A stretch of 64,000 bases of DNA from Escherichia coli (lineage in GTDB: Bacteria > Pseudomonadota > Gammaproteobacteria > Enterobacterales > Enterobacteriaceae). Made by a program: the position numbers and the translations under genes. Of the stretch, positions 3,591 to 50,733 are shown piece after piece. The notes under the pieces were generated by a model that was not told the origin of the DNA, did not search any database, and was given only the letters and a program-made list of their open reading frames with translations. Numbering within the stretch: the stretch's first letter is position 1; each line of letters opens with the position of its first letter. Location: assembly GCF_048403405.1 (NCBI RefSeq), contig NZ_CP183129.1. The stretch is one strand, 5' to 3'.

Positions 3591-4004
3591 ATGGCTAATA
3601 AACCTTCGGCAGAAGAACTGAAAAAAAATTTGTCCGAGATGAAGTTCTACGTGACGCAGAATCATGGGACAGAGCCGCCATTTACGGGTCGTTTACTGCA
3701 TAACAAGCGTGACGGCGTATATCACTGTTTGATCTGCGATGCCCCGCTGTTTCATTCCCAAACCAAGTATGATTCCGGCTGTGGCTGGCCCAGTTTCTAC
3801 GAACCGGTGAGTGAAGAATCCATTCGTTATATCAAAGACTTGTCACATGGAATGCAGCGCATAGAAATTCGTTGCGGTAACTGTGATGCCCATCTGGGGC
3901 ATGTCTTCCCCGACGGGCCGCAGCCAACGGGTGAACGTTATTGTGTTAACTCAGCCTCTTTACGCTTTACCGATGGCGAAAACGGCGAAGAAATCAACGG
4001 TTGA
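3591..4004 (+). CDS. msrB: peptide methionine-(R)-sulfoxide reductase MsrB
   Basis: 137-aa product from internal Met [10 protein letters not shown]; two CxxC zinc motifs ([16 protein letters not shown]) and catalytic RYCVNSA. Confidence 0.9.
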
Positions 4005-4045
4005 AAAAACGATTCAGCAACTTATTCCACAGGAGCGGAAAAATT

Positions 4046-4318
4046 ATGAATCTTGATGACATTATCAACAGCATGACGCTTGAGGTATACCAGCGTTTGT
4101 CGACCGCCGTTGAATTGGGCAAATGGCCTGATGGCGTTGCGTTGACCGAGGAACAAAAAGAGAACTGCCTGCAACTGGTGATGCTGTGGCAAGCCCGCAA
4201 TAATACCGAAGCACAGCATATGACAATTGACACAAATGGTCAGATGGTCATGAAGAGCAAACAACAGTTAAAAGAAGATTTTGGTATCTCAGCAAAGGCT
4301 ATTGCCATGTTTAAGTAA
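4046..4318 (+). CDS. yeaC: DUF1315 family protein YeaC
   Basis: 90-aa product starting MNLDDIINS, preceded by AGGAG Shine-Dalgarno at 4031-4035. Confidence 0.8.
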   Translation: MNLDDIINSMTLEVYQRLSTAVELGKWPDGVALTEEQKENCLQLVMLWQARNNTEAQHMTIDTNGQMVMKSKQQLKEDFGISAKAIAMFK

Positions 4319-4576
4319 GTGGTTTGTCCCCTTTTTGCCGCGGTTATAAAGGGGATAGCCAACAATAACCCCACGACTCATCTCAATTATCTCGTCACGA
4401 CCAGGCTAAGTCCCAGCCCGGTCTCTTGCAGTCGCGTTCACGCCTGAATGACTTCTCCTGAACTTAAGTCTCAGACCTATTTGGCCGGTAATCCCTCTCA
4501 AATTTGCTCATTTTGCGTTCCGCCTTCCATCAACCTGTAACAGATCCAGCCATTTTCTGCGTAATTGTGATCTGAG

Positions 4577-4610
4577 TTGTAAAACGCAGATCATTATCTG
4601 TGTTTTACAG
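4577..4610. promoter_or_regulatory. 34-bp imperfect palindrome (TGTAAAAC-N16-GTTTTACA with nested CAGAT-CATT-ATCTG) upstream of ydjL; candidate operator
   Basis: 8-bp perfect inverted repeat at 4578-4585 and 4602-4609 plus inner palindrome 4587-4600, about 80 bp upstream of the ydjL start. Confidence 0.4.
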
Positions 4611-4618
4611 ATTTAATG

Positions 4619-4649
4619 TTGACCTCAAAAATCATGTGGGTAAGTATGA
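4619..4649 (+). promoter_or_regulatory. putative sigma70 promoter of the ydjL operon (-35 TTGACC, -10-like TAAGTAT/TATGAT)
   Basis: consensus-like TTGACC at 4619-4624 followed 16-19 bp later by A/T-rich -10 candidates. Confidence 0.3.
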
Positions 4650-4687
4650 TGACCATCTAAGCAAAACAAAACACAGAGGATGACGCA

Positions 4688-5764
4688 ATGAAAGCACTGG
4701 CTCGGTTTGGCAAAGCCTTTGGCGGCTACAAGATGATCGATGTCCCACAACCCATTTGTGGCCCGGAAGATGTAGTGATTGAAATTAAAGCCGCGGCAAT
4801 CTGCGGCGCAGACATGAAGCACTACAATGTCGATAGCGGTTCTGATGAGTTTAACTCTATCCGCGGCCATGAGTTCGCAGGTTGTATTGCGCAGGTTGGT
4901 GAAAAAGTCAAAGACTGGAAAGTGGGGCAACGCGTCGTGTCGGATAACAGCGGTCACGTCTGCGGCGTTTGTCCGGCCTGTGAACAAGGTGATTTTCTGT
5001 GTTGTACAGAAAAAGTAAACCTTGGTCTGGATAACAATACCTGGGGCGGTGGTTTTTCCAAATATTGTCTGGTTCCTGGTGAAATTCTCAAAATTCATCG
5101 TCATGCATTGTGGGAAATCCCTGATGGTGTTGATTATGAGGACGCAGCCATACTTGACCCTATCTGTAATGCCTATAAATCCATCGCGCAGCAATCGAAA
5201 TTCCTCCCTGGTCAGGATGTGGTCGTCATCGGCACTGGCCCACTCGGGCTGTTCTCCGTACAAATGGCGCGGATTATGGGGGCGGTAAATATCGTCGTCG
5301 TTGGTCTACAAGAAGATGTGGCGGTCCGCTTCCCGGTTGCAAAAGAACTGGGTGCGACGGCAGTAGTAAATGGTTCTACCGAAGATGTGGTGGCGCGCTG
5401 CCAGCAAATTTGTGGCAAAGACAATCTGGGACTGGTGATTGAATGCTCCGGTGCCAATATCGCACTGAAACAAGCCATCGAAATGCTCCGTCCGAACGGG
5501 GAAGTGGTACGCGTTGGAATGGGCTTCAAACCTCTTGATTTCTCGATTAATGACATTACCGCCTGGAACAAAAGCATCATTGGGCATATGGCCTATGACT
5601 CCACCTCATGGCGTAACGCTCTCCGGCTATTAGCCAGCGGCGCTATCAAAGTCAAACCGATGATCACGCATCGTATCGGCCTGTCGCAATGGCGCGAAGG
5701 GTTTGATGCGATGGTCGATAAAACCGCAATCAAAGTGATCATGACTTACGACTTTGATGAATAA
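4688..5764 (+). CDS. ydjL: zinc-dependent alcohol/polyol dehydrogenase (MDR family)
   Basis: 358 aa; GHEFAG and Cys-rich structural zinc motif CGVCPACEQGDFLCC; first gene of compact ydj cluster. Confidence 0.85.
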   Translation: MKALARFGKAFGGYKMIDVPQPICGPEDVVIEIKAAAICGADMKHYNVDSGSDEFNSIRGHEFAGCIAQVGEKVKDWKVGQRVVSDNSGHVCGVCPACEQGDFLCCTEKVNLGLDNNTWGGGFSKYCLVPGEILKIHRHALWEIPDGVDYEDAAILDPICNAYKSIAQQSKFLPGQDVVVIGTGPLGLFSVQMARIMGAVNIVVVGLQEDVAVRFPVAKELGATAVVNGSTEDVVARCQQICGKDNLGLVIECSGANIALKQAIEMLRPNGEVVRVGMGFKPLDFSINDITAWNKSIIGHMAYDSTSWRNALRLLASGAIKVKPMITHRIGLSQWREGFDAMVDKTAIKVIMTYDFDE

Positions 5765-5790
5765 CTACTCTCCTGAAGGAACGTTATCGC

Positions 5791-7170
5791 ATGGAACAGA
5801 TAACAAAACCGCATTGTGGTGCACGGCTGGATCGCTTACCGGATTGCCGCTGGCATTCGTCAATGTTTGCCATCGTCTCGTTTGGCTTGCTTGTCTGCTG
5901 GAGTAATGCCGTTGGTGGCTTGATCCTCGCGCAGCTGAAAGAGTTGGGCTGGACAGATAATTCCACCACTGCCACATTCTCAGCAATCACGACCGCCGGA
6001 ATGTTTCTCGGTGCGCTGGTTGGCGGCATCATCGGTGACAAAACCGGTCGCAGAAATGCGTTCATCCTCTATGAGGCCATTCATATTGCCTCGATGGTGG
6101 TCGGTGCTTTTTCACCGAATATGGATTTCCTTATTGCCTGCCGTTTTGTGATGGGCGTTGGGCTGGGAGCTTTACTGGTGACGCTGTTTGCTGGTTTCAC
6201 CGAATATATGCCCGGTAGAAATCGCGGAACGTGGTCCAGTCGGGTTTCTTTTATTGGCAACTGGTCATATCCGCTCTGTTCATTGATTGCGATGGGACTC
6301 ACGCCGCTGATTAGTGCAGAGTGGAACTGGCGAGTACAACTGCTTATCCCTGCAATATTGTCGCTTATCGCTACGGCGCTGGCCTGGCGCTACTTTCCTG
6401 AATCCCCGCGCTGGCTGGAATCGCGCGGACGGTATCAGGAAGCCGAGAAAGTCATGCGGAGTATAGAAGAAGGCGTCATACGCCAGACGGGAAAACCTTT
6501 GCCGCCCGTGGTTATTGCTGATGACGGTAAAGCGCCACAAGCGGTGCCGTATTCAGCCTTAATGACAGGAGTATTACTGAAACGCGTGATATTAGGCTCT
6601 TGTGTGCTGATTGCCATGAACGTTGTGCAGTACACACTAATTAACTGGTTGCCAACAATATTCATGACCCAGGGGATTAATTTAAAAGACTCGATTGTTT
6701 TAAATACCATGAGTATGTTTGGCGCGCCATTTGGTATTTTTATTGCTATGCTGGTGATGGATAAAATTCCGCGTAAAACAATGGGTGTGGGGCTATTAAT
6801 CCTGATTGCGGTGCTCGGATATATCTATTCACTGCAAACCAGTATGTTGCTCATAACGTTGATTGGTTTCTTCCTGATTACTTTCGTCTATATGTACGTT
6901 TGCTATGCCTCGGCAGTGTATGTCCCTGAGATCTGGCCGACAGAGGCCAAATTACGTGGCTCCGGTCTGGCGAATGCAGTAGGGCGAATCAGTGGTATTG
7001 CCGCACCTTATGCCGTTGCAGTGCTGCTCAGTAGTTATGGCGTAACGGGAGTCTTTATTCTTCTGGGGGCGGTTTCAATTATTGTCGCAATTGCTATCGC
7101 CACCATTGGAATTGAAACCAAAGGTGTCTCCGTTGAAAGTTTAAGTATTGATGCAGTAGTCAATAAATAA
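5791..7170 (+). CDS. ydjK: MFS transporter (sugar/metabolite:H+ symporter type)
   Basis: 459 aa, about 12 predicted TM segments, MFS motif GDKTGRR; paralogous to YdjE in the same cluster. Confidence 0.85.
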   Translation: MEQITKPHCGARLDRLPDCRWHSSMFAIVSFGLLVCWSNAVGGLILAQLKELGWTDNSTTATFSAITTAGMFLGALVGGIIGDKTGRRNAFILYEAIHIASMVVGAFSPNMDFLIACRFVMGVGLGALLVTLFAGFTEYMPGRNRGTWSSRVSFIGNWSYPLCSLIAMGLTPLISAEWNWRVQLLIPAILSLIATALAWRYFPESPRWLESRGRYQEAEKVMRSIEEGVIRQTGKPLPPVVIADDGKAPQAVPYSALMTGVLLKRVILGSCVLIAMNVVQYTLINWLPTIFMTQGINLKDSIVLNTMSMFGAPFGIFIAMLVMDKIPRKTMGVGLLILIAVLGYIYSLQTSMLLITLIGFFLITFVYMYVCYASAVYVPEIWPTEAKLRGSGLANAVGRISGIAAPYAVAVLLSSYGVTGVFILLGAVSIIVAIAIATIGIETKGVSVESLSIDAVVNK

Positions 7171-7186
7171 TACTGGTGGATTCAAA

Positions 7187-8230
7187 ATGAAAAATTCAAA
7201 AGCAATATTGCAGGTGCCGGGCACAATGAAAATTATTTCAGCAGAAATACCTGTGCCTAAAGAAGATGAAGTTTTGATTAAAGTGGAATATGTCGGTATT
7301 TGTGGTTCAGATGTACATGGTTTTGAATCAGGCCCGTTTATTCCGCCTAAAGACCCAAATCAAGAAATTGGCTTGGGTCATGAATGCGCCGGGACGGTTG
7401 TGGCTGTGGGAAGCCGTGTGCGCAAATTTAAAGCGGGGGATCGGGTAAATATCGAACCTGGCGTTCCTTGCGGTCACTGTCGTTACTGTCTGGAAGGCAA
7501 ATATAACATCTGCCCGGACGTTGATTTTATGGCGACACAACCTAACTACCGCGGCGCATTAACGCACTATCTGTGTCATCCGGAGAGCTTTACTTACAAA
7601 CTGCCCGACAATATGGACATGATGGAAGGGGCGCTGGTGGAGCCTGCTGCAGTCGGGATGCATGCCGCGATGCTGGCAGATGTTAAACCGGGTAAGAAGA
7701 TAATTATTCTGGGAGCGGGTTGTATTGGTTTGATGACGTTGCAAGCGTGCAAATGCCTGGGAGCTACGGATATTGCCGTCGTTGATGTACTGGATAAACG
7801 TCTGACAATGGCGGAACAGCTCGGCGCGACAGTGGTTATTAACGGTGCAAAAGAAGACACTATTGCACGCTGTCAGCAATTTACCGAAGAAATGGGCGCA
7901 GATATTGTTTTCGAAACAGCGGGTTCTGCGGTCACCGTTAAACAGGCACCTTATCTGGTAATGCGCGGCGGTAAAATTATGATTGTTGGTACTGTACCGG
8001 GCGATTCGGCAATCAATTTCCTCAAAATCAATCGCGAAGTCACTATTCAGACAGTATTCCGCTATGCCAATCGTTATCCGGTCACGATTGAAGCTATTTC
8101 CTCAGGGCGATTCGATGTGAAATCGATGGTGACACATATTTACGATTATCAGGATGTACAACAGGCATTTGAAGAGTCGGTTAACAACAAACGCGACATT
8201 ATTAAAGGCGTTATTAAAATTAGCGATTAA
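7187..8230 (+). CDS. ydjJ: zinc-dependent alcohol/polyol dehydrogenase (MDR family)
   Basis: 347 aa; GHECAG and CGHCRYC zinc motifs; paralogue of YdjL. Confidence 0.85.
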   Translation: MKNSKAILQVPGTMKIISAEIPVPKEDEVLIKVEYVGICGSDVHGFESGPFIPPKDPNQEIGLGHECAGTVVAVGSRVRKFKAGDRVNIEPGVPCGHCRYCLEGKYNICPDVDFMATQPNYRGALTHYLCHPESFTYKLPDNMDMMEGALVEPAAVGMHAAMLADVKPGKKIIILGAGCIGLMTLQACKCLGATDIAVVDVLDKRLTMAEQLGATVVINGAKEDTIARCQQFTEEMGADIVFETAGSAVTVKQAPYLVMRGGKIMIVGTVPGDSAINFLKINREVTIQTVFRYANRYPVTIEAISSGRFDVKSMVTHIYDYQDVQQAFEESVNNKRDIIKGVIKISD

Positions 8231-8250
8231 TTAATACGGGAGAACAGAAT

Positions 8251-9087
8251 ATGCTCGCAGATATCAGATATTGGGAAAACGATGCCACAAATAAACATTA
8301 TGCAATTGCCCATTTTAACGTATGGAATGCAGAAATGTTGATGGGCGTTATCGACGCAGCCGAAGAAGCGAAATCACCGGTTATTATTTCTTTTGGTACA
8401 GGTTTTGTCGGGAACACCTCATTTGAAGATTTCTCTCACATGATGGTATCAATGGCAAAAAAAGCAACGGTGCCGGTAATAACTCATTGGGATCATGGTC
8501 GGAGTATGGAAATTATTCATAACGCCTGGACTCATGGTATGAATTCATTAATGCGTGATGCTTCCGCATTTGATTTCGAAGAAAATATTCGTTTAACCAA
8601 AGAGGCTGTTGATTTCTTCCATCCGCTGGGTATTCCGGTAGAGGCAGAATTAGGGCATGTCGGTAATGAAACCGTTTATGAAGAAGCGCTGGCGGGCTAT
8701 CACTATACCGATCCTGACCAGGCGGCTGAATTTGTTGAACGTACGGGCTGTGACTCATTGGCTGTCGCCATCGGCAACCAACATGGGGTTTATACGTCAG
8801 AGCCACAATTGAATTTTGAGGTCGTCAAACGCGTACGCGATGCCGTTTCTGTTCCGCTGGTTTTGCACGGCGCATCGGGGATCAGTGATACCGACATTAA
8901 AACTGCAATTTCGTTGGGTATCGCGAAAATCAACATTCATACGGAGCTCTGTCAGGCCGCAATGGTAGCAGTGAAAGAAAACCAGGATCAGCCTTTCCTG
9001 CATTTAGAACGTGAAGTACGTAAAGCTGTAAAAGAACGGGCATTGGAAAAAATTAAACTGTTCGGTTCTGATGGCAAAGCGGAATAA
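8251..9087 (+). CDS. ydjI: class II (metal-dependent) ketose-bisphosphate aldolase family protein
   Basis: 278 aa TIM-barrel aldolase-like sequence with HWDHG motif. Confidence 0.8.
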   Translation: MLADIRYWENDATNKHYAIAHFNVWNAEMLMGVIDAAEEAKSPVIISFGTGFVGNTSFEDFSHMMVSMAKKATVPVITHWDHGRSMEIIHNAWTHGMNSLMRDASAFDFEENIRLTKEAVDFFHPLGIPVEAELGHVGNETVYEEALAGYHYTDPDQAAEFVERTGCDSLAVAIGNQHGVYTSEPQLNFEVVKRVRDAVSVPLVLHGASGISDTDIKTAISLGIAKINIHTELCQAAMVAVKENQDQPFLHLEREVRKAVKERALEKIKLFGSDGKAE

Positions 9088-9091
9088 TGAT

Positions 9092-10039
9092 ATGGATAAT
9101 CTCGACGTTATTTGTATAGGTGCCGCTATTGTTGATATTCCATTGCAACCGGTCAGTAAAAATATCTTTGATGTGGATTCTTATCCTCTTGAAAGAATCG
9201 CAATGACCACCGGGGGTGATGCAATAAATGAAGCAACAATTATTTCTCGTCTGGGCCATCGCACAGCATTAATGAGTCGTATTGGTAAAGATGCCGCCGG
9301 GCAATTTATTCTCGACCATTGCCGCAAAGAGAATATTGATATTCAAAGCCTGAAGCAGGACGTCAGCATAGATACCTCAATTAACGTTGGACTGGTGACG
9401 GAGGATGGCGAGCGGACGTTTGTCACAAACTGTAACGGCAGTCTGTGGAAATTGAATATTGACGATGTTGATTTTTCGCGGTTTTCTCAGGCGAAATTAT
9501 TATCTCTGGCCAGTATTTTCAACAGTCCTCTATTGGATGGTAAAGCGCTAACAGAAATTTTTACGCAAGCTAAAGCCCGGCAGATGATTATCTGTGCCGA
9601 TATGATCAAACCGCGGTTGAATGAAACGCTGGATGATATTTGCGAAGCATTGAGTTATGTCGATTATCTGTTTCCTAATTATGCCGAGGCAAAATTACTC
9701 ACCGGGAAAGAGACACTGGAGGAAATTGCTGACTGCTTTCTTGCGTGCGGCGTAAAAACGGTGGTGATTAAAACGGGTAAAGACGGCTGCTTTATCAAGC
9801 GTGGTGACATGACGATGAAGGTGCCGGCGGTCGCAGGAATAACCGCCATCGACACCATTGGCGCGGGCGATAACTTTGCTTCAGGTTTTATTGCGGCACT
9901 GTTAGAAGGCAAAAATCTGCGTGAATGCGCACGCTTTGCCAATGCAACGGCGGCTATCTCGGTTCTAAGCGTCGGTGCCTCCACCGGCGTAAAAAACAGA
10001 AAGCTGGTCGAACAATTGCTGGAAGAATACGAAGGATAA
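9092..10039 (+). CDS. ydjH: sugar kinase of the ribokinase/PfkB family
   Basis: 315 aa from Met MDNLDVICIG; PfkB signature GAGDNFASGF; ORF track start 9071 would overlap ydjI. Confidence 0.8.
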   Translation: MDNLDVICIGAAIVDIPLQPVSKNIFDVDSYPLERIAMTTGGDAINEATIISRLGHRTALMSRIGKDAAGQFILDHCRKENIDIQSLKQDVSIDTSINVGLVTEDGERTFVTNCNGSLWKLNIDDVDFSRFSQAKLLSLASIFNSPLLDGKALTEIFTQAKARQMIICADMIKPRLNETLDDICEALSYVDYLFPNYAEAKLLTGKETLEEIADCFLACGVKTVVIKTGKDGCFIKRGDMTMKVPAVAGITAIDTIGAGDNFASGFIAALLEGKNLRECARFANATAAISVLSVGASTGVKNRKLVEQLLEEYEG

Positions 10040-10048
10040 TGAAGGCAA

Positions 10049-11029
10049 ATGAAAAAGATACCTTTAGGCACAACGGATATTACGCTTTCGCGAATGGGGT
10101 TGGGGACATGGGCCATTGGCGGCGGTCCTGCATGGAATGGCGATCTCGATCGACAAATATGTATTGATACGATTCTTGAAGCCCATCGTTGCGGCATTAA
10201 CCTGATTGATACTGCGCCAGGATATAACTTTGGCAATAGTGAAGTTATCGTCGGTCAGGCGTTAAAAAAACTGCCCCGTGAACAGGTTGTAGTAGAAACC
10301 AAATGCGGCATTGTCTGGGAACGAAAAGGGAGTTTATTCAACAAAGTTGGCGATCGGCAGTTGTATAAAAACCTTTCCCCGGAATCTATCCGCAAAGAGG
10401 TAGAAGCCAGCTTGCAACGTCTGGGTATTGATTACATCGATATCTACATGACGCACTGGCAGTCGGTGCCGCCATTTTTTACGCCGATCGCTGAAACTGT
10501 CGCAGTGCTCAATGAGTTAAAGGACGAAGGGAAAATTCGCGCTATAGGCGCTGCTAACGTCGATGCTGACCATATCCGCGAGTATCTGCAATATGGTGAA
10601 CTGGATATTATTCAGGCGAAATACAGTATCCTCGACCGGGCAATGGAAAGCGAACTGCTGCCGCTATGTCGTGATAATGGCATTGTGGTACAGGTTTATT
10701 CGCCGTTAGAGCAGGGATTGTTGACCGGTACCATCACTCGTGATTACGTTCCGGGCGGCGCTCGGGCAAATAAAGTCTGGTTCCAGCGTGAAAACATGCT
10801 GAAAGTGATTGATATGCTTGAACAGTGGCAGCCACTCTGTGCTCGTTATCAGTGCACAATTCCCACTCTGGCACTGGCGTGGATATTAAAACAGAGTGAT
10901 TTAATCTCCATTCTTAGTGGGGCTACTGCACCGGAACAGGTACGCGAAAATGTCGCGGCATTGAATATCAACTTATCGGATGCAGACGCAACATTGATGA
11001 GGGAAATGGCAGAGGCCCTGGAGCGTTAA
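10049..11029 (+). CDS. ydjG: aldo-keto reductase (NADH-dependent methylglyoxal reductase type)
   Basis: 326 aa AKR-family ORF, 9 bp after ydjH. Confidence 0.85.
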   Translation: MKKIPLGTTDITLSRMGLGTWAIGGGPAWNGDLDRQICIDTILEAHRCGINLIDTAPGYNFGNSEVIVGQALKKLPREQVVVETKCGIVWERKGSLFNKVGDRQLYKNLSPESIRKEVEASLQRLGIDYIDIYMTHWQSVPPFFTPIAETVAVLNELKDEGKIRAIGAANVDADHIREYLQYGELDIIQAKYSILDRAMESELLPLCRDNGIVVQVYSPLEQGLLTGTITRDYVPGGARANKVWFQRENMLKVIDMLEQWQPLCARYQCTIPTLALAWILKQSDLISILSGATAPEQVRENVAALNINLSDADATLMREMAEALER

Positions 11030-11165
11030 ATACTCAACACGATTCACCTCTGTTTCTGTGAAAACTGTGATGAAAATCTGTGATTCAAACAGGTTATTTT
11101 GAAAGTAAACATCGGTTATGCGATAATCGCGCTAATGTGATGTAAAAAGATACAGGGGTGTAATC

Positions 11166-11923
11166 GTGGCGGCAAAAGACAGGATTCAGGCAATTAAGCA
11201 AATGGTTGCCAACGATAAAAAGGTGACAGTCTCAAATTTGAGTGGGATTTTTCAGGTAACCGAAGAAACCATTCGCCGCGATCTCGAGAAGCTGGAAGAT
11301 GAAGGCTTTTTGACCAGAACCTATGGTGGTGCTGTTTTAAATACAGCGATGTTGACGGAGAATATCCATTTTTATAAGCGCGCTTCATCGTTTTATGAAG
11401 AGAAGCAGCTTATTGCACGCAAGGCACTACCCTTTATCGACAATAAAACCACTATGGCAGCCGATTCCAGTAGTACCGTTATGGAATTGCTCAAATTGTT
11501 GCAGGACCGTAGTGACCTGACGTTGCTAACTAACTCGGCGGAAGCGATTCATGTTCTGGCTCAATCAGAAATTAAAGTCGTTTCAACGGGGGGGAACTAA
11601 ACAAAAATACACTTTCCCTGCAAGGAAGAATTACTAAAGAGATCATCAGCCGCTACCATGTCGATATCATGGTAATGAGTTGTAAAGGTCTTGATATTAA
11701 CAGCGGCGCGCTGGACTCTAACGAAGCGGAAGCTGAAATCAAAAAGACAATGATCCGTCAGGCGACAGAGGTTGCGTTATTGGTTGATCACTCTAAGTTT
11801 GATCGCAAAGCTTTTGTCCAGTTAGCTGACTTTAGTCATATTAATTACATAATAACTGATAAATCACCGGGTGCAGAGTGGATAGCATTTTGCAAAGACA
11901 ATAATATCCAGCTGGTGTGGTAA
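11166..11923 (+). pseudogene. ydjF: DeoR-family transcriptional regulator interrupted by a -1 frameshift in a G7 tract (11588-11594)
   Basis: N-terminal HTH ORF 11166-11600 (GTG start) and C-terminal sugar-binding-domain ORF 11669-11923 are in different frames; reading continues as ..VVSTGG/GELNKNTLSLQGR.. if one nucleotide is added in the G run. Confidence 0.6.
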
Positions 11924-47654: not shown

Positions 47655-48425
<771 letters not shown>

Positions 48426-48435
48426 GTAAGGTGGT

Positions 48436-48463
48436 AAGGTCACTCCCCAGGGGGCGTGACCTT
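48436..48463. terminator. bidirectional terminator-like hairpin between convergent chbG and katE
   Basis: inverted repeat AAGGTCACTCCCC / GGGGGCGTGACCTT. Confidence 0.5.
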
Positions 48464-48471
48464 ATCCATAT

Positions 48472-50733
48472 TTACGCCGGAATTTTGTCAATCTTAGGAA
48501 TGCGTGACCACACGCGGTGTGCTGCCATCAGCGTTAACAGTTCATCCATAAAACTACCATCGGCGCTGTCAGCTTCCACAATCCCTTCTTCACCCTGGTC
48601 AGCGACCTTGATTGTTGCTTTAAACTTGCGCGCGTCTCCTGCCAGCGCAATCGGTTTAAGGTGTTTGTAGGCTTCCATCAGGTAGTAGTTGGCATCGCCG
48701 TTGTCAGCGATATCCGCGATATTGCCGCAAGGGACAATAACCGCATCGACCGTCAGCGAAGGCGCTCCGGCAAAGGTAGCAGCTATAGGCAGCACCGTAC
48801 CGTCATCCGCAGTCACTTCACCCATTCGGGAGTAGAGCAGTTTGGCATGAACGCCTTTGGCCTTCAGCGCCTTGAGAATGGTCATAAGGTCTGCCGATCT
48901 CACTTCATCATTAAGCAAAATCGCTACCACGCGACCTTTTACATCACCGTCAGGAATGGCGTACAGACTTAAGGATGGATCCTTTTTCAGACCGTTGACG
49001 TCCGGAGGCGGGGAGATATTCAGCTGGTCGTCAGTCAGTTCGATACCGAGATTTTTCGCCACCGCCTGGGCCAGAGTGAGATCAATATGCGCCAGCTGGT
49101 CAACAACGCGCTCACGAATATACGGCCGAACTACTTTGCTTAATTCAAAACTGAAACCATCGACAATATGGCGCTGCTCGAATGGCGTCTGACTTAGCCA
49201 GAACAGACGCGGATGGGAATAATATTCGCCAAACGATGGACTGCGCTCGCGAACTTTATTGCCTTCCACGCGTTCCTGGTATGATTCAAAACCGCCACGT
49301 TTCGGCCCCGGCGGTGTTTCGCGCGGCCAGTTATCGTTGATCGAGTTCGGTTCGTAATTCGCCGGGTTAGTGTCGATCCCCATACGATGCATGCCGTCAC
49401 GCTGGAAATTATGGTAAGGGCAGGTCGGGCGGTTAATCGGAATCTCATGGAAATTTGGTCCGCCAAGACGACTGATTTGTGTATCGGTATAAGAGAACAA
49501 ACGCCCCTGCAACAGCGGATCGTTGGTGAAATCCAGACCGGGGACAATATGCCCAGGATGGAAAGCCGCCTGTTCGTTTTCGGCAAAGAAGTTATCCGGG
49601 TTGCGATTGAGCACCATTTTGCCAACACGCTGAACGGGTACCAGTTCTTCCGGGATGAGTTTGGTTGGATCGAGAAGATCGAAGTCAAACTTGAATTCAT
49701 CTTCTTCAGGAATCAACTGGAAGCCCAGTTCGTATTCCGGAAAATCGCCTGCTTCGATGGCTTCCCACAACTCGCGGCGGTGGAAGTCCGGGTCACGTCC
49801 GGTTAGTTTTTGTGCTTCATCCCAAACGAGTGAGGCTTTACCTGCCAGTGGTTTCCAGTGGAAACGTACGAACGTTGCCTTCCCTTCGGCATTAATCAGG
49901 CGGAAGGTGTGAATACCGAAGCCTTCCATGGTGCGGTAACTGCGCGGTATACCGCGATCCGACATCGCCCACATCACGTTGTGCAGAGTTTCAGGTTGCA
50001 GAGAAACATAATCCCAGAAAGTATCGTGGGCGCTTTGCCCTTGTGGAATTGCCCAATGCGGTTCTGGTTTTACCGCATGAACAAAATCGGGGAATTTATG
50101 CGCATCCTGGATAAAGAAGATTGGCGTGTTATTGCCAACGAGGTCAAAAATACCCTCTTCGGTATAGAACTTGGTGGCAAAGCCACGGATATCACGCACG
50201 GTATCGGCAGAGCCAGCACCACCCTGAACGGTAGAGAAACGTACAAATACTGGGGTGATTTTGTTCGGATCTGAGAGGAAATCCGCTTTGGTGATATCGC
50301 TTAAGCTTTTATATGGCTGGAAATAACCGTGAGCGGCTGATCCGCGTGCATGAACAATACGTTCCGGGATGCGCTCATGGTCAAAGTGAGTGATTTTCTC
50401 GCGCAGAATAAAATCTTCCAGCAGCGTTGGACCACGGCTACCGGCACGCAGTGAGTTTTGATCATCGGCGATGCGCACGCCCTGATTAGTGGTCAGCGCA
50501 AAATTTTCACTGCCTTTGCGTACGTCTTCCAGAGAATTAAGTTTTTCGTTACGCGTATCAGGGGCTTTCAGGCTCCCAGGGGCGGTAGGTTGTGCACCTG
50601 GCGGTGTTGGTTCAGCCGCTGGACGATGAGATCCGTCTTCAGGTGCCAGTGAGTCCATCCCCGGTTTCGCTTCGCTGGAATCGTGTAGTGGTGACTGGTG
50701 CTGATGTGGGTTCTTTTCGTTATGTTGCGACAT
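48472..50733 (-). CDS. katE: catalase HPII (large-subunit monofunctional catalase)
   Basis: 753 aa; catalase core plus C-terminal flavodoxin-like domain; AAGGAGAC SD. Confidence 0.95.

Follow-up and report, generated by a model that had tools for sequence, protein, structure and literature searches.

A predicted YdjF operator array upstream of the ydjL promoter of Escherichia coli

Results

The ydj locus and the ydjL promoter

The window analysed here, a 64,000-nucleotide stretch of Escherichia coli DNA, carries yeaC, a 369-bp spacer and the sugar-acid gene cluster ydjLKJIHG-ydjF in that order; gene identities were taken from the RefSeq annotation of a strain that is identical over a 372-nt intergenic query. 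The first gene of ydjLKJIHG is ydjL (4688..5764, plus strand), annotated as a zinc-dependent dehydrogenase. At the 3' end of the cluster, ydjF (11166..11923, plus strand) is assigned to the DeoR/GlpR family of regulators by annotation and protein models, and in the window it appears frameshifted at a run of seven G residues (11588-11594). The natural substrate of the ydj pathway is unsettled (PMC9602453). In an in vivo promoter screen, a ydjL promoter fragment was off in culture and on in the mouse gut, and it was among the two most consistent 'healthy gut' sensors (PMC6561318).

The sequence-only reading of this stretch had taken TTGACC (4619..4624, plus strand) for a -35 hexamer, and comparison bears this out: the hexamer is conserved across Enterobacterales, TTGAC being invariant or nearly so, and the spacer to the -10 hexamer AAGTAT (4642..4647, plus strand; AATTAT or AACTAT in distant genera) is fixed at 17 bp. 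A promoter proposed by a scan, TTTACA-17-AAAAAT, was rejected as it is not the conserved one, whereas TTGACC-17-AAGTAT holds its register in all genera. Judged from the geometry of the hexamers, transcription would start near 4654 and leave a 5' UTR of about 34 nt; the sequence places a Shine-Dalgarno motif, GAGGA, at 4676..4680 on the plus strand.

A single-copy palindrome upstream of ydjL

The palindrome described in the sequence-only reading lies just upstream of this promoter. Its 8-bp repeat arms, TGTAAAAC (4578-4585) and GTTTTACA (4602-4609), and its inner palindrome CAGAT-CATT-ATCTG (4587-4600) were read exactly where they had been placed, and the ydjL ATG at 4688 is 79 nt past the dyad, in agreement with the earlier figure of about 80 bp. 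The palindrome itself therefore stood but its length of 34 bp did not, as the true span is 32 bp (4578..4609; TGTAAAACGCAGAT-CATT-ATCTGTGTTTTACA; the dyad and the boxes below are given without strand). A length of 34 bp is reached only when the non-complementary T4577 and G4610 are included, as in a terminator scan that tolerates G-T pairs. By inverted-repeat search the arms (4578-4591 and 4596-4609) are 14 nt each, lie 4 nt apart and are 93% complementary, with G4586/T4601 as the sole mismatch.

The dyad is confirmed as genuine and far above chance expectation. Just two inverted repeats with 14-nt arms, at most one mismatch and no more than 10 nt between the arms occur in the 64-kb window, against an expectation of 0.35 per 64 kb in first-order Markov resamples, and none of 2000 resamples of the 369-nt intergenic region contained one. 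Each of 4327-4333 E. coli genomes has it at a single location; a repetitive extragenic palindrome or miniature mobile element, either of which would require many copies, was thereby ruled out.

Candidate operator boxes and their conservation

We compared the region with 40 ydjL loci from other species; the counts below refer to 23 enterobacterial sequences and 14 non-enteric loci. Across the 23 enterobacterial sequences the promoter and boxes are conserved as blocks, and DNA further upstream cannot be aligned between genera. The dyad joins parts of two 17-bp boxes, O1 and O2: its left arm is the inner 14 nt of O2, its right arm the first 14 nt of O1, and 4 bp lie in between. The promoter-proximal box O1 (4596..4612; ATCTGTG-TTT-TACAGAT) is a pseudo-palindrome conserved in all 23 enterobacterial sequences, and a scanning matrix trained on enterobacterial O1 alone scores it highest of all positions in the window (26.1). 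Between its end and the ydjL -35 hexamer there are 6 bp, and its centre is at about -50 from the predicted start. Box O2 (4575..4591; AGTTGTA-AAA-CGCAGAT) is an inverted copy of O1 (reverse complement ATCTGCGTTTTACAACT) whose centre lies 21 bp, or about two helical turns, upstream of that of O1, near -71. It is weaker than O1, being the second-best matrix match in 128 kb (both strands; score 17.7), and while Escherichia, Citrobacter, Klebsiella, Raoultella and Yokenella have kept it, Serratia, Enterobacillus and Symbiopectobacterium have not.

Conservation of the dyad as a whole, which the sequence-only reading had made a test of function, thus holds in part: the right arm with 3 further nt, that is O1, is found in Enterobacterales and beyond, whereas Serratia, Enterobacillus and Symbiopectobacterium no longer have the left arm. 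Compared as DNA, the arms disagree at 4 or more of 14 positions in most genera. The comparison shows that the conserved, and probably the functional, unit is the 17-bp box ATCTGTG-N3-yACAGAT rather than the 32-34-bp palindrome.

Among 12 E. coli sequences, all polymorphisms of the 90-nt promoter region fall at 4572-4616, in and around the boxes, and 4617-4649 is invariant, so that constraint is weaker on some box positions than on the core promoter. In O157:H7 the right half of O1 is changed from GA to TG. Strain A29 carries a perfect 32-bp palindrome, reached via intermediates (4607 A>G; then 4586 G>A; then 4580 T>C and 4592 C>A), and of its five changes three bring the palindrome closer to perfection. 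No more than 7 of 4327 E. coli genomes are as divergent as A29.

Upstream of the boxes, a TGTGA block (4565..4573; TTGTGATCT) has the invariant columns T19, G20, T21, G22, A23 and C25. The TGTGA itself (4566-4570) is invariant in 23 of 23 Enterobacterales sequences at a constant distance to the -35 hexamer, and no TCACA-like partner is conserved in these 23. The block would be either a further TGTGA-type half-site of the operator array or a CRP half-site.

A third candidate box, O3 (4995..5011; TTCTGTG-TTG-TACAGAA), was identified inside ydjL by matrix and conservation. It is the third-best matrix match in the window (score 16.1), with its centre 399 bp downstream of that of O1, and the 6-codon windows of ydjL in which it lies are, at the nucleotide level, the best conserved among Enterobacterales (top 0.8% of windows; codon identity 0.92 at the O3 windows versus a ydjL mean of 0.47, sd 0.16). 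Synonymous change is suppressed in a block at about 4991-5014 that coincides with O3. The box is absent from Firmicutes ydjL.

The ydjF promoter and the YdjF protein

The layout at ydjL, namely box, 6 bp, -35, 17 bp and -10, recurs at the ydjF promoter (TTGAAA-17-GATAAT; 11099..11127, plus strand), whose hexamers are also listed for a constitutive RpoD promoter between ydjG and ydjF found by genomic SELEX (PMC3946193). The ydjF-promoter box (11076..11092; ATCTGTG-ATT-CAAACAG) ends 6 bp before the -35 hexamer, ranks seventh of about 128,000 positions by matrix (score 11.9) and is conserved as ATCTGTGATTCAGACAT in other Enterobacterales. An upstream half-site (11054..11070; TTCTGTGAAAA), 22 bp from the proximal box, agrees with the motif in its left half alone; TTTCTGTGTAAAA is conserved there across Enterobacterales, and the site is absent from the 17-bp matrix matches, so that this distal box is at best a weak candidate for membership of the array.

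YdjF has full-length, sub-threshold matches to the GlpR, AgaR, SrlR, FucR and DeoR models, that to DeoR reaching 87.5 bits, below the curated cut-off of 244; the sub-threshold NCBIfam matches include the L-fucose operon activator model. Its sole match among solved structures is the C-terminal domain of a 'Deoxyribose operon repressor' (7l6l). Most non-enteric orthologs share 60-88% identity with it in the helix-turn-helix (residues 18-57) and 37-53% elsewhere in the protein, although much of this conservation, TIRRDL, is generic to the DeoR family. The most divergent helix-turn-helix (47%) is that of Anaerococcus, whose locus is among those without a convincing box. YdjF is classed as an uncharacterised transcription factor of E. 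coli K-12 (PMC4797297), and our literature search for YdjF sites, ChIP-exo data or the ydjL transcription start found nothing beyond 'uncharacterised'.

The ydj cassette outside the Enterobacterales

A ydjL-J-I-H-G-F cassette, usually with ydjK, is present in Lachnospiraceae, Eubacteriaceae, Ruminococcus, Anaerococcus, Megamonas and Atopobiaceae (76-84% YdjL identity), and wherever a contig carries the complete cluster a ydjF ortholog is present, in all phyla sampled. At 8 of the 14 non-enteric loci the best matrix match in about 17 kb falls within 300 nt upstream of ydjL, a number that none of 1000 column-permuted matrices reached (mean 1.2, maximum 6), with the qualification that the motif is AT-rich and degenerate in these loci, which are not all phylogenetically independent. 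At the remaining 6 of 14 the best match lies outside this zone. The top words found de novo in the non-enteric upstream regions alone were CTGTGAA, TCTGTGA and TCTGTG.

In most Firmicutes and Atopobiaceae ydj loci a box lies 6-9 bp before the -35 hexamer of a TTGnnn-17-TAnnnT promoter, a geometry that is partly fitted, as promoter-box pairs were picked by score allowing gaps of 0-15 bp. Boxes repeat at a spacing of 20-22 bp in E. coli and at six of the other loci, two of which have a box pair ahead of a transporter operon just after ydjF; at one further locus the best match lies 9 bp before the -35 hexamer of an ABC-transporter operon that runs into ydjL. In Atopobiaceae a box overlaps the -35 hexamer, and in Megamonas two boxes lie over the -10 hexamer and the 5' UTR.

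Discussion

Given the sequence anatomy, conservation, promoter geometry and co-occurrence with ydjF that we observed, we think it rather likely that YdjF has an operator array immediately upstream of the ydjLKJIHG sigma-70 promoter, that the dyad belongs to it, and that this array is probably repressive. As is characteristic of DeoR/GlpR operators, a regulator of the family is encoded in the cluster, sites occur at the promoters of both the operon and the regulator, repeated sites are in helical phase (21 bp at ydjL, 22 bp at ydjF), and motif and regulator co-occur. The suggestion of an operator-like geometry at the promoter edge thus survives as a DNA element of the protein-operator type, but not its overlap with the core promoter, since 6 bp separate O1 from the -35 hexamer. 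Of the two proteins named as possible binders in the sequence-only reading, YdjF is the best candidate on comparative evidence alone, its role as repressor being an interpretation; for CRP the invariant TGTGA at 4566-4570 speaks in favour, but the second half-site is missing.

Our model for the array is as follows. YdjF would recognise two 17-bp boxes of the type ATCTGTG-N3-CACAGAT, O1 and O2, and most likely binds them cooperatively as an oligomer, so that the promoter is kept off. It would probably act likewise on its own promoter, where a box has the same placement, and may possibly loop to the intragenic box about 400 bp downstream. An intermediate of the pathway would free YdjF from the DNA; by family precedent this may be a sugar acid phosphorylated by the kinase YdjH. 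Repression is favoured because the box positions in Atopobiaceae and Megamonas fit repression alone, and the behaviour of the ydjL promoter, off in culture and on in the gut, fits that of an inducible, repressed promoter (PMC6561318). A box centred near -50 is, however, not at the classical position for occlusion and could suit an activator. The E. coli polymorphism in and around the boxes, the lack of O2 conservation in the most distant Enterobacterales and the 6 of 14 non-enteric loci with their best match elsewhere likewise count against the array.

It is accordingly conceivable, albeit improbable, that YdjF binds the boxes as an activator, which from sites at about -50 and -71 would recruit RNA polymerase to a promoter with a poor -10 hexamer once inducer is present. 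FucR is an activator within the DeoR/GlpR family, and the L-fucose operon activator model is among the sub-threshold matches of YdjF. The centres of O1 and O2, upstream of the -35 hexamer, are at typical activator positions, and AAGTAT matches the -10 consensus at three of six positions. However, members of the DeoR family are mostly repressors, a box on the -35 hexamer in Atopobiaceae and boxes on the -10 hexamer and 5' UTR in Megamonas are incompatible with activation, and the ydjF promoter, with the same box geometry, is recognised in vitro by RNA polymerase alone (PMC3946193). We give still less weight to the reading in which another protein binds the boxes, be it CRP via the TGTGA motifs or another global regulator, with YdjF acting elsewhere or not at all. 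Besides the invariant TGTGA, this reading can point to ydjF, whose promoter has three TGTGA words, as a predicted target in CRP genomic SELEX, although the paper that names ydjF makes no mention of ydjL (PMC3105977). Scored against the consensus, the CRP 22-mer at 4563-4584 fits at 10 of 11 positions in its left half but at 2 of 11 in its right half, which is not conserved, and the dyad arms do not fit TGTGA-N6-TCACA; neither the dyad nor 4563-4584 was accepted as a CRP site, the second half-site being missing. Moreover, box motif and placement persist in Firmicutes and Actinobacteria, where the YdjF ortholog is the only regulator that travels with the cassette.

The palindrome might instead act as RNA, that is as a hairpin in transcripts that read through from msrB-yeaC or start inside yeaC, serving as a terminator or attenuator, as a modulator of Rho termination or as a pairing partner of the ydjL Shine-Dalgarno sequence. 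This we regard as unlikely, including the variant in which the dyad is in addition a hairpin in Rho-terminated read-through transcripts from yeaC. In its favour, a ydjL '5' UTR + ORF' fusion starting at about 4211, inside yeaC, was more than 2-fold higher in a rho mutant, and a Rho-termination region was called inside ydjL (bioRxiv 10.1101/2020.07.18.207399). The stretch 4350-4550 is C-rich and G-poor, and a terminator scan picks out 4577-4610 together with ATTTAATGTT. The right arm could pair with the Shine-Dalgarno region over 16 nt (88% complementary), most of the changes that separate the arms of different genera are G-U-compatible on the plus strand, and one E. coli lineage has palindrome-perfecting changes. 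However, the dyad lies outside the transcript of the ydjL promoter because the predicted start near 4654 is downstream of it, and it stays with ydjL, upstream of a conserved promoter, where yeaC is about 2 kb off or absent. Across the 23 Enterobacterales sequences the hairpin is paired in 83.9% of cells versus 84.0% after shuffling, with a covariation score that likewise equals the shuffled one, which reflects column conservation and not covariation, and distant genera keep the right arm and lose the left. An intrinsic terminator was rejected given a G+C-poor stem (4 G-C pairs of 15), a T tract, ATTTAATGTT, that is interrupted, an element tied to ydjL rather than yeaC and the loss of the left arm in distant genera. 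A structured cis-regulatory RNA was likewise rejected: besides the lack of covariation and the position of the dyad upstream of the -35 and -10 hexamers, an Rfam scan of 4000-5000 with E up to 10 returned only sub-threshold eukaryotic snoRNA-type noise, and the fold of 4560-4700 is no more stable than shuffles (z = -0.65). Pairing between the right arm and the Shine-Dalgarno region fares no better, since 61.8% paired versus 61.3% shuffled, near the slid controls, indicates no covariation, and the alternative hairpin 4568-4578 / 4583-4593 is broken by the natural variants G4574A and G4586A with no compensation. Nor was the apparent compensatory change in A29 accepted as evidence of RNA structure, as it is rare (at most 7 of 4327 genomes) and equally explained by quasi-palindrome template switching.

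Least probable of all, in our judgement, is that the long palindrome has no function of its own and either results incidentally from two boxes in inverted orientation or is a quasi-palindrome that template-switch errors of replication maintain and perfect. The stepwise perfection of the palindrome in A29, where three of five changes perfect it, and the concentration of polymorphism in the dyad are in keeping with such a view. This view, however, explains the symmetry of the E. coli arms but not the conservation of O1, its constant distance to the -35 hexamer, its recurrence at the ydjF promoter and its presence across phyla.

The proposed YdjF operator array has its closest parallels within the DeoR/GlpR family. 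The deo operators (O1, O2 and OE) of E. coli DeoR are palindromic, about 16-17 bp long and several in number, including a distant one, and respond to a sugar-phosphate effector; the ydj array resembles them in regulator family, in palindromic boxes of about 17 bp, in several sites with possibly a distant one, and in the sugar-phosphate effector that would be expected. In contrast, the ydj box ATCTGTG-N3-CACAGAT differs in sequence from the DeoR operator, TGTTAGAA-TTCTAACA, and at deoP1 and deoP2 it is the -10 region that the DeoR operators overlap, while the proximal ydj box ends 6 bp upstream of the -35 hexamer. GlpR, a repressor of the same family that serves the glp regulon, uses tandem operators on one helix face, and auxiliary GlpR operators reportedly lie inside the glpD coding region, a parallel to candidate O3 in ydjL; the half-site sequence differs, however, and YdjF falls below threshold for GlpR models. 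In lac, a main operator, O1, is joined by an auxiliary O2 at +401 inside lacZ, and ydj similarly has a main box and a weaker pseudo-palindrome about 400 bp downstream in the first gene (399 bp), although the LacI/GalR repressor is of an unrelated family and looping at ydj is conjectural. Conservation and matrix match mark O3 as a candidate auxiliary site, which may act by looping; as 5' UTR lengths differ, O1 and O3 are expected to lie a few bp closer or further apart from genus to genus. Finally, an invariant TGTGA about 85 bp upstream of the predicted start recalls CRP class I and CytR-CRP composite promoters, with the difference from class I that the second CRP half-site is missing at ydjL, for which the literature searched reports no CRP binding. 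Since this TGTGA overlaps the edge of O2, repressor and CRP could compete or cooperate.

A bolder and more tentative proposal, which we consider possible but somewhat doubtful, is that the cassette moves between phyla as a self-contained unit of regulator, operator and promoter (box-6/7 bp-TTGnnn-17-TAnnnT) that would still work in each host, namely Gram-positive gut anaerobes, Actinobacteria and Enterobacterales, with the Enterobacterales having gained a third, intragenic operator about 400 bp downstream for looped repression. If true, this would explain an operon that is silent in culture and induced in the gut. The conservation of promoter and operator across phyla would neatly illustrate how regulatory DNA can travel along with catabolic genes.

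In conclusion, the predicted YdjF array is best read as an ordinary kind of DeoR-type switch, undescribed for the gut-induced ydj operon; it is a familiar sort of switch and would not overturn current understanding. For this operon, the operator model specifies the exact bases at two promoters, names one candidate auxiliary site and predicts the repressor, and the loss of YdjF-DNA binding would offer a route to the inducer and hence to the substrate of the pathway.

Results

The dyad upstream of ydjL, TGTAAAAC-G-CAGAT-CATT-ATCTG-T-GTTTTACA, has exactly the position and sequence that the sequence-only reading had given it (4578-4609), and lies ahead of the hexamer TTGACC (4619-4624, + strand) and the ydjL ATG (4688, + strand). 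By RefSeq annotation of a matching strain, the gene order is msrB, yeaC, ydjL-K-J-I-H-G, ydjF and ydjE, all on the + strand, and several RefSeq strains match a 372-nt yeaC-ydjL spacer query identically. Only two comparable inverted repeats (14-nt arms, at most 1 mismatch, loop of at most 10 nt) occur in the 64 kb, Markov resamples yielding 0.35 per window and 0 of 2000 resamples of the 369-nt spacer containing one; the dyad is beyond chance. The second such repeat, AAGGTCAC(T/G)CCCC...GGGG (48435-48464), sits between convergent ORFs (47667-48425, + strand; 48472-50733, - strand) and looks like an ordinary bidirectional terminator. The yeaC-ydjL spacer also holds a direct repeat, TAAGTCCCAGCCC (4407-4419) and TAAGTCTCAGACC (4465-4477), 58 nt apart, a short two-copy family that is quite possibly due to chance. 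A hairpin, TCCCCTTT...AAAGGGGA (4327-4355), lies 9 nt past the yeaC stop without a T tract; its loop varies between E. coli strains, and possible roles are weak termination of yeaC or stabilisation of RNA.

Scanning for YdjL with one genome per species gave 58 loci. The ydjL-J-I-H-G-F cassette, usually with ydjK, is present in Escherichia, Citrobacter, Klebsiella, Raoultella, Yokenella, Budvicia, Serratia, Enterobacillus and Symbiopectobacterium. Upstream of ydjL, 23 enterobacterial sequences align as discrete conserved blocks, namely TTGTGATCT, GTTGTGAAAT-CAGAT, ATCTGTGTTTTAAAGATTT and TTGAC(C/T)-17 bp-AAGTAT, the last hexamer being AATTAT or AACTAT in distant genera; further upstream there is no alignment between genera. 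Since the blocks align and the sequence beyond them does not, TTGACC, proposed earlier as a -35 element, belongs to a conserved promoter, the geometry of which predicts a ydjL transcription start near 4654.

Conservation of the dyad, suggested as a check on its function, held for one side only. Its right arm plus 3 nt, a 17-bp box that we term O1 (ATCTGTG-TTT-TACAGAT, 4596-4612), is the sole part kept throughout, and in Serratia and Enterobacillus it reads ATCTGTG-TTT-CACAGAT inside a perfect 21-bp palindrome. The left arm, lost in distant genera, falls within O2 (4575-4591; reverse complement ATCTGCGTTTTACAACT), a weaker inverted copy of O1 centred 21 bp from it and missing in Serratia, Enterobacillus and Symbiopectobacterium. 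Because one arm comes from each box, the long palindrome consists of the inner parts of two adjoining inverted boxes. An operator at the promoter edge appears correct in kind, the anatomy being two boxes and not one long palindrome.

Using a position weight matrix built from enterobacterial O1 sites, we scanned both strands of the window. O1 ranked first (score 26.1), O2 second (17.7), a site inside ydjL third (4995-5011; 16.1) and a box upstream of ydjF seventh (11076-11092; 11.9). The ydjF box ends 6 bp ahead of TTGAAA-17-GATAAT, a geometry equal to that of O1 at ydjL, and the same hexamers are listed for a constitutive RpoD promoter between ydjG and ydjF found by genomic SELEX (PMC3946193). 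In the ydjF 5' UTR, TGATGTAAAAAGATACAGGG (11141-11160) is the reverse complement of the site given for the LexA ChIP-chip target 'ydjF,ydjK', which is listed as degenerate and unconventional (PMC3542263).

TTCTGTG-TTG-TACAGAA (4995-5011), the match inside ydjL, has its centre 399 bp from that of O1. Across Enterobacterales, ydjL third-codon positions are ~50% identical to E. coli, and 6-codon windows over the site have a codon identity of 0.92 against a gene mean of 0.47 (sd 0.16), placing them in the top 0.8%; synonymous change is suppressed in a block (~4991-5014) that coincides with the box. Firmicutes ydjL, in which the protein sequence differs, lacks the site. Auxiliary operators inside genes are known from glpD and lacZ; this site resembles them, and we conjecture that it is a third operator.

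The cassette also occurs, with YdjL at 76-84% identity, in Lachnospiraceae, Eubacteriaceae, Ruminococcus, Anaerococcus, Megamonas and Atopobiaceae. In 14 non-enteric loci of ~17 kb each, a matrix trained on Enterobacterales only placed its single best match within 300 nt upstream of ydjL in 8, a number reached by 0 of 1000 column-permuted matrices (mean 1.2, maximum 6), a control that keeps the AT bias of the matrix. An unbiased word count in the non-enteric upstream regions alone returned CTGTGAA, TCTGTGA and TCTGTG as top words. A TTGnnn-17-TAnnnT promoter follows the proximal box after 6-9 bp in most lineages (pairs chosen by score, gaps of 0-15 bp allowed). The top three matches in a GC-rich Atopobiaceae locus (17.3, 15.8 and 15.7; next 6.9) form a tandem array with a spacing of 20-21 bp, and the last of these boxes overlaps the -35. 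In locus L052 ydjL lies inside an operon, and the best match is found 9 bp upstream of the -35 for the ABC-transporter operon leading into ydjL; in two loci without ydjK (L030, L042) a box pair precedes a transporter operon directly after ydjF.

At the Megamonas locus (L046, 7948-7985), two perfect palindromes ATGTTTA-N3-TAAACAT, 21 bp apart, lie over the ydjL -10 and 5' UTR; the half-site ATGTTTA is a variant of ATCTGTG, and the E. coli ydjF promoter has TAAACAT (11106-11112) in its spacer. Some Lachnospiraceae carry a LivH/LivM-type ABC transporter in place of the MFS transporter YdjK. The whole ydj cassette (4688-11923 in the window) is common to Enterobacterales and gut Firmicutes, Negativicutes and Atopobiaceae (loci L029-L052), and the unusually high identity (YdjI 72-82%, besides YdjL) points to a fairly recent cross-phylum horizontal transfer.

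Within E. coli, the yeaC-ydjL spacer region is single-copy and was found in about 4330 of 5426 complete genomes; 1093 (~20%) have no match to the spacer. In strain KTa005, IS1 lies 131 nt after yeaC and ydjL to most of ydjE is deleted. Over the 90 nt at 4560-4649, 1593 genomes equal the window, 2727 have 1-4 differences and 7 have at least 5. All polymorphisms in 12 compared sequences fall within 4572-4616, and 4617-4649 (-35 to -10) is invariant among them. A perfect 32-bp palindrome, TGCAAAACACAGATAATTATCTGTGTTTTGCA, is present in a rare lineage, A29; intermediates are observable and 3 of its 5 changes perfect the symmetry. Quasi-palindrome template switching is a known mechanism that perfects palindromes. 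As it explains these changes equally well, and as the lineage is rare, we dropped them as a hint of RNA structure.

Discussion

Lying upstream of the predicted start, the dyad would be absent from the transcript of this promoter, and a role as a functional RNA element would concern read-through transcripts. A published study assigned ydjL a long 5' UTR starting inside yeaC, found a ydjL fusion >2-fold up in a rho mutant, and called a Rho-dependent termination region inside ydjL at MG1655 coordinate 1861188 (bioRxiv 10.1101/2020.07.18.207399). The forward primer of that fusion maps to about 4211, and between 4350 and 4550 the spacer is rich in C and poor in G, with a GC skew of -0.26 to -0.35 resembling that of a Rho-loading site. 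We estimate that coordinate 1861188 lies 124 nt into the ydjL ORF (about 4812), given an assumed start-codon coordinate. Given the fusion starting in yeaC and the C-rich spacer, read-through RNA with the hairpin exists, and Rho seems to insulate the ydj operon from msrB-yeaC read-through. However, the case for an RNA element is weak: there were 0 Rfam matches, the hairpin and the pairing with the Shine-Dalgarno region had no covariation and both equalled shuffled controls, and the fold was no more stable than shuffled sequence. Moreover, the element accompanies ydjL even with yeaC ~2 kb off or absent, and one dyad arm is dispensable in distant genera.

We favour reading the dyad, on comparative grounds, as an operator of a well-known class. 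YdjF, listed as uncharacterised (PMC4797297), belongs over its full length to the DeoR/GlpR family and scores below all curated equivalog cut-offs. An ortholog stands at the 3' end of every cluster complete on its contig. In most non-enteric orthologs the helix-turn-helix (residues 18-57) is 60-88% identical, against 37-53% elsewhere in the protein, a conservation partly generic to the family; Anaerococcus is the exception, with 47% in the helix-turn-helix and no convincing box at the locus. By these comparisons YdjF, earlier named as a possible binder, is the likely one. The window's own ydjF (11166-11923) has G7 at 11588-11594 where other E. coli have G8, so that its product ends after 144 aa with the rest in another frame. 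G7 occurs in one of 947 matching genomes (strain B1.H1.39, NZ_CP146556.1), and sister Escherichia species have CCGGTGGGG here, without a long G run. G7 reflects either a true loss of the candidate repressor or a sequencing error in the homopolymer.

We consider it reasonably likely that O2 and O1 form a YdjF operator array, with the matching ydjF-promoter box serving autoregulation. YdjF would bind O2 and O1 at the ydjL promoter and the matching box at its own, and would repress at these boxes. Repression is favoured because most DeoR-family members are repressors and because boxes in Atopobiaceae overlap the -35 and those in Megamonas lie over the -10 and 5' UTR. It is favoured also because transcription from the ydjF promoter requires no activator in vitro (PMC3946193) and because the ydjL promoter, silent in culture, is active in the mouse gut (PMC6561318). 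Going by family precedent only, YdjH probably makes the effector, as a phosphorylated intermediate. Two roles are possible for the invariant TGTGA at 4566-4570, one more half-site of the array or half of a CRP site; ydjF, though not ydjL, is listed in a CRP SELEX paper.

The proposed system is of moderate interest, as regulator, site and inducer are all uncharacterised and as the operator-promoter layout would have been carried with the cassette across phyla.
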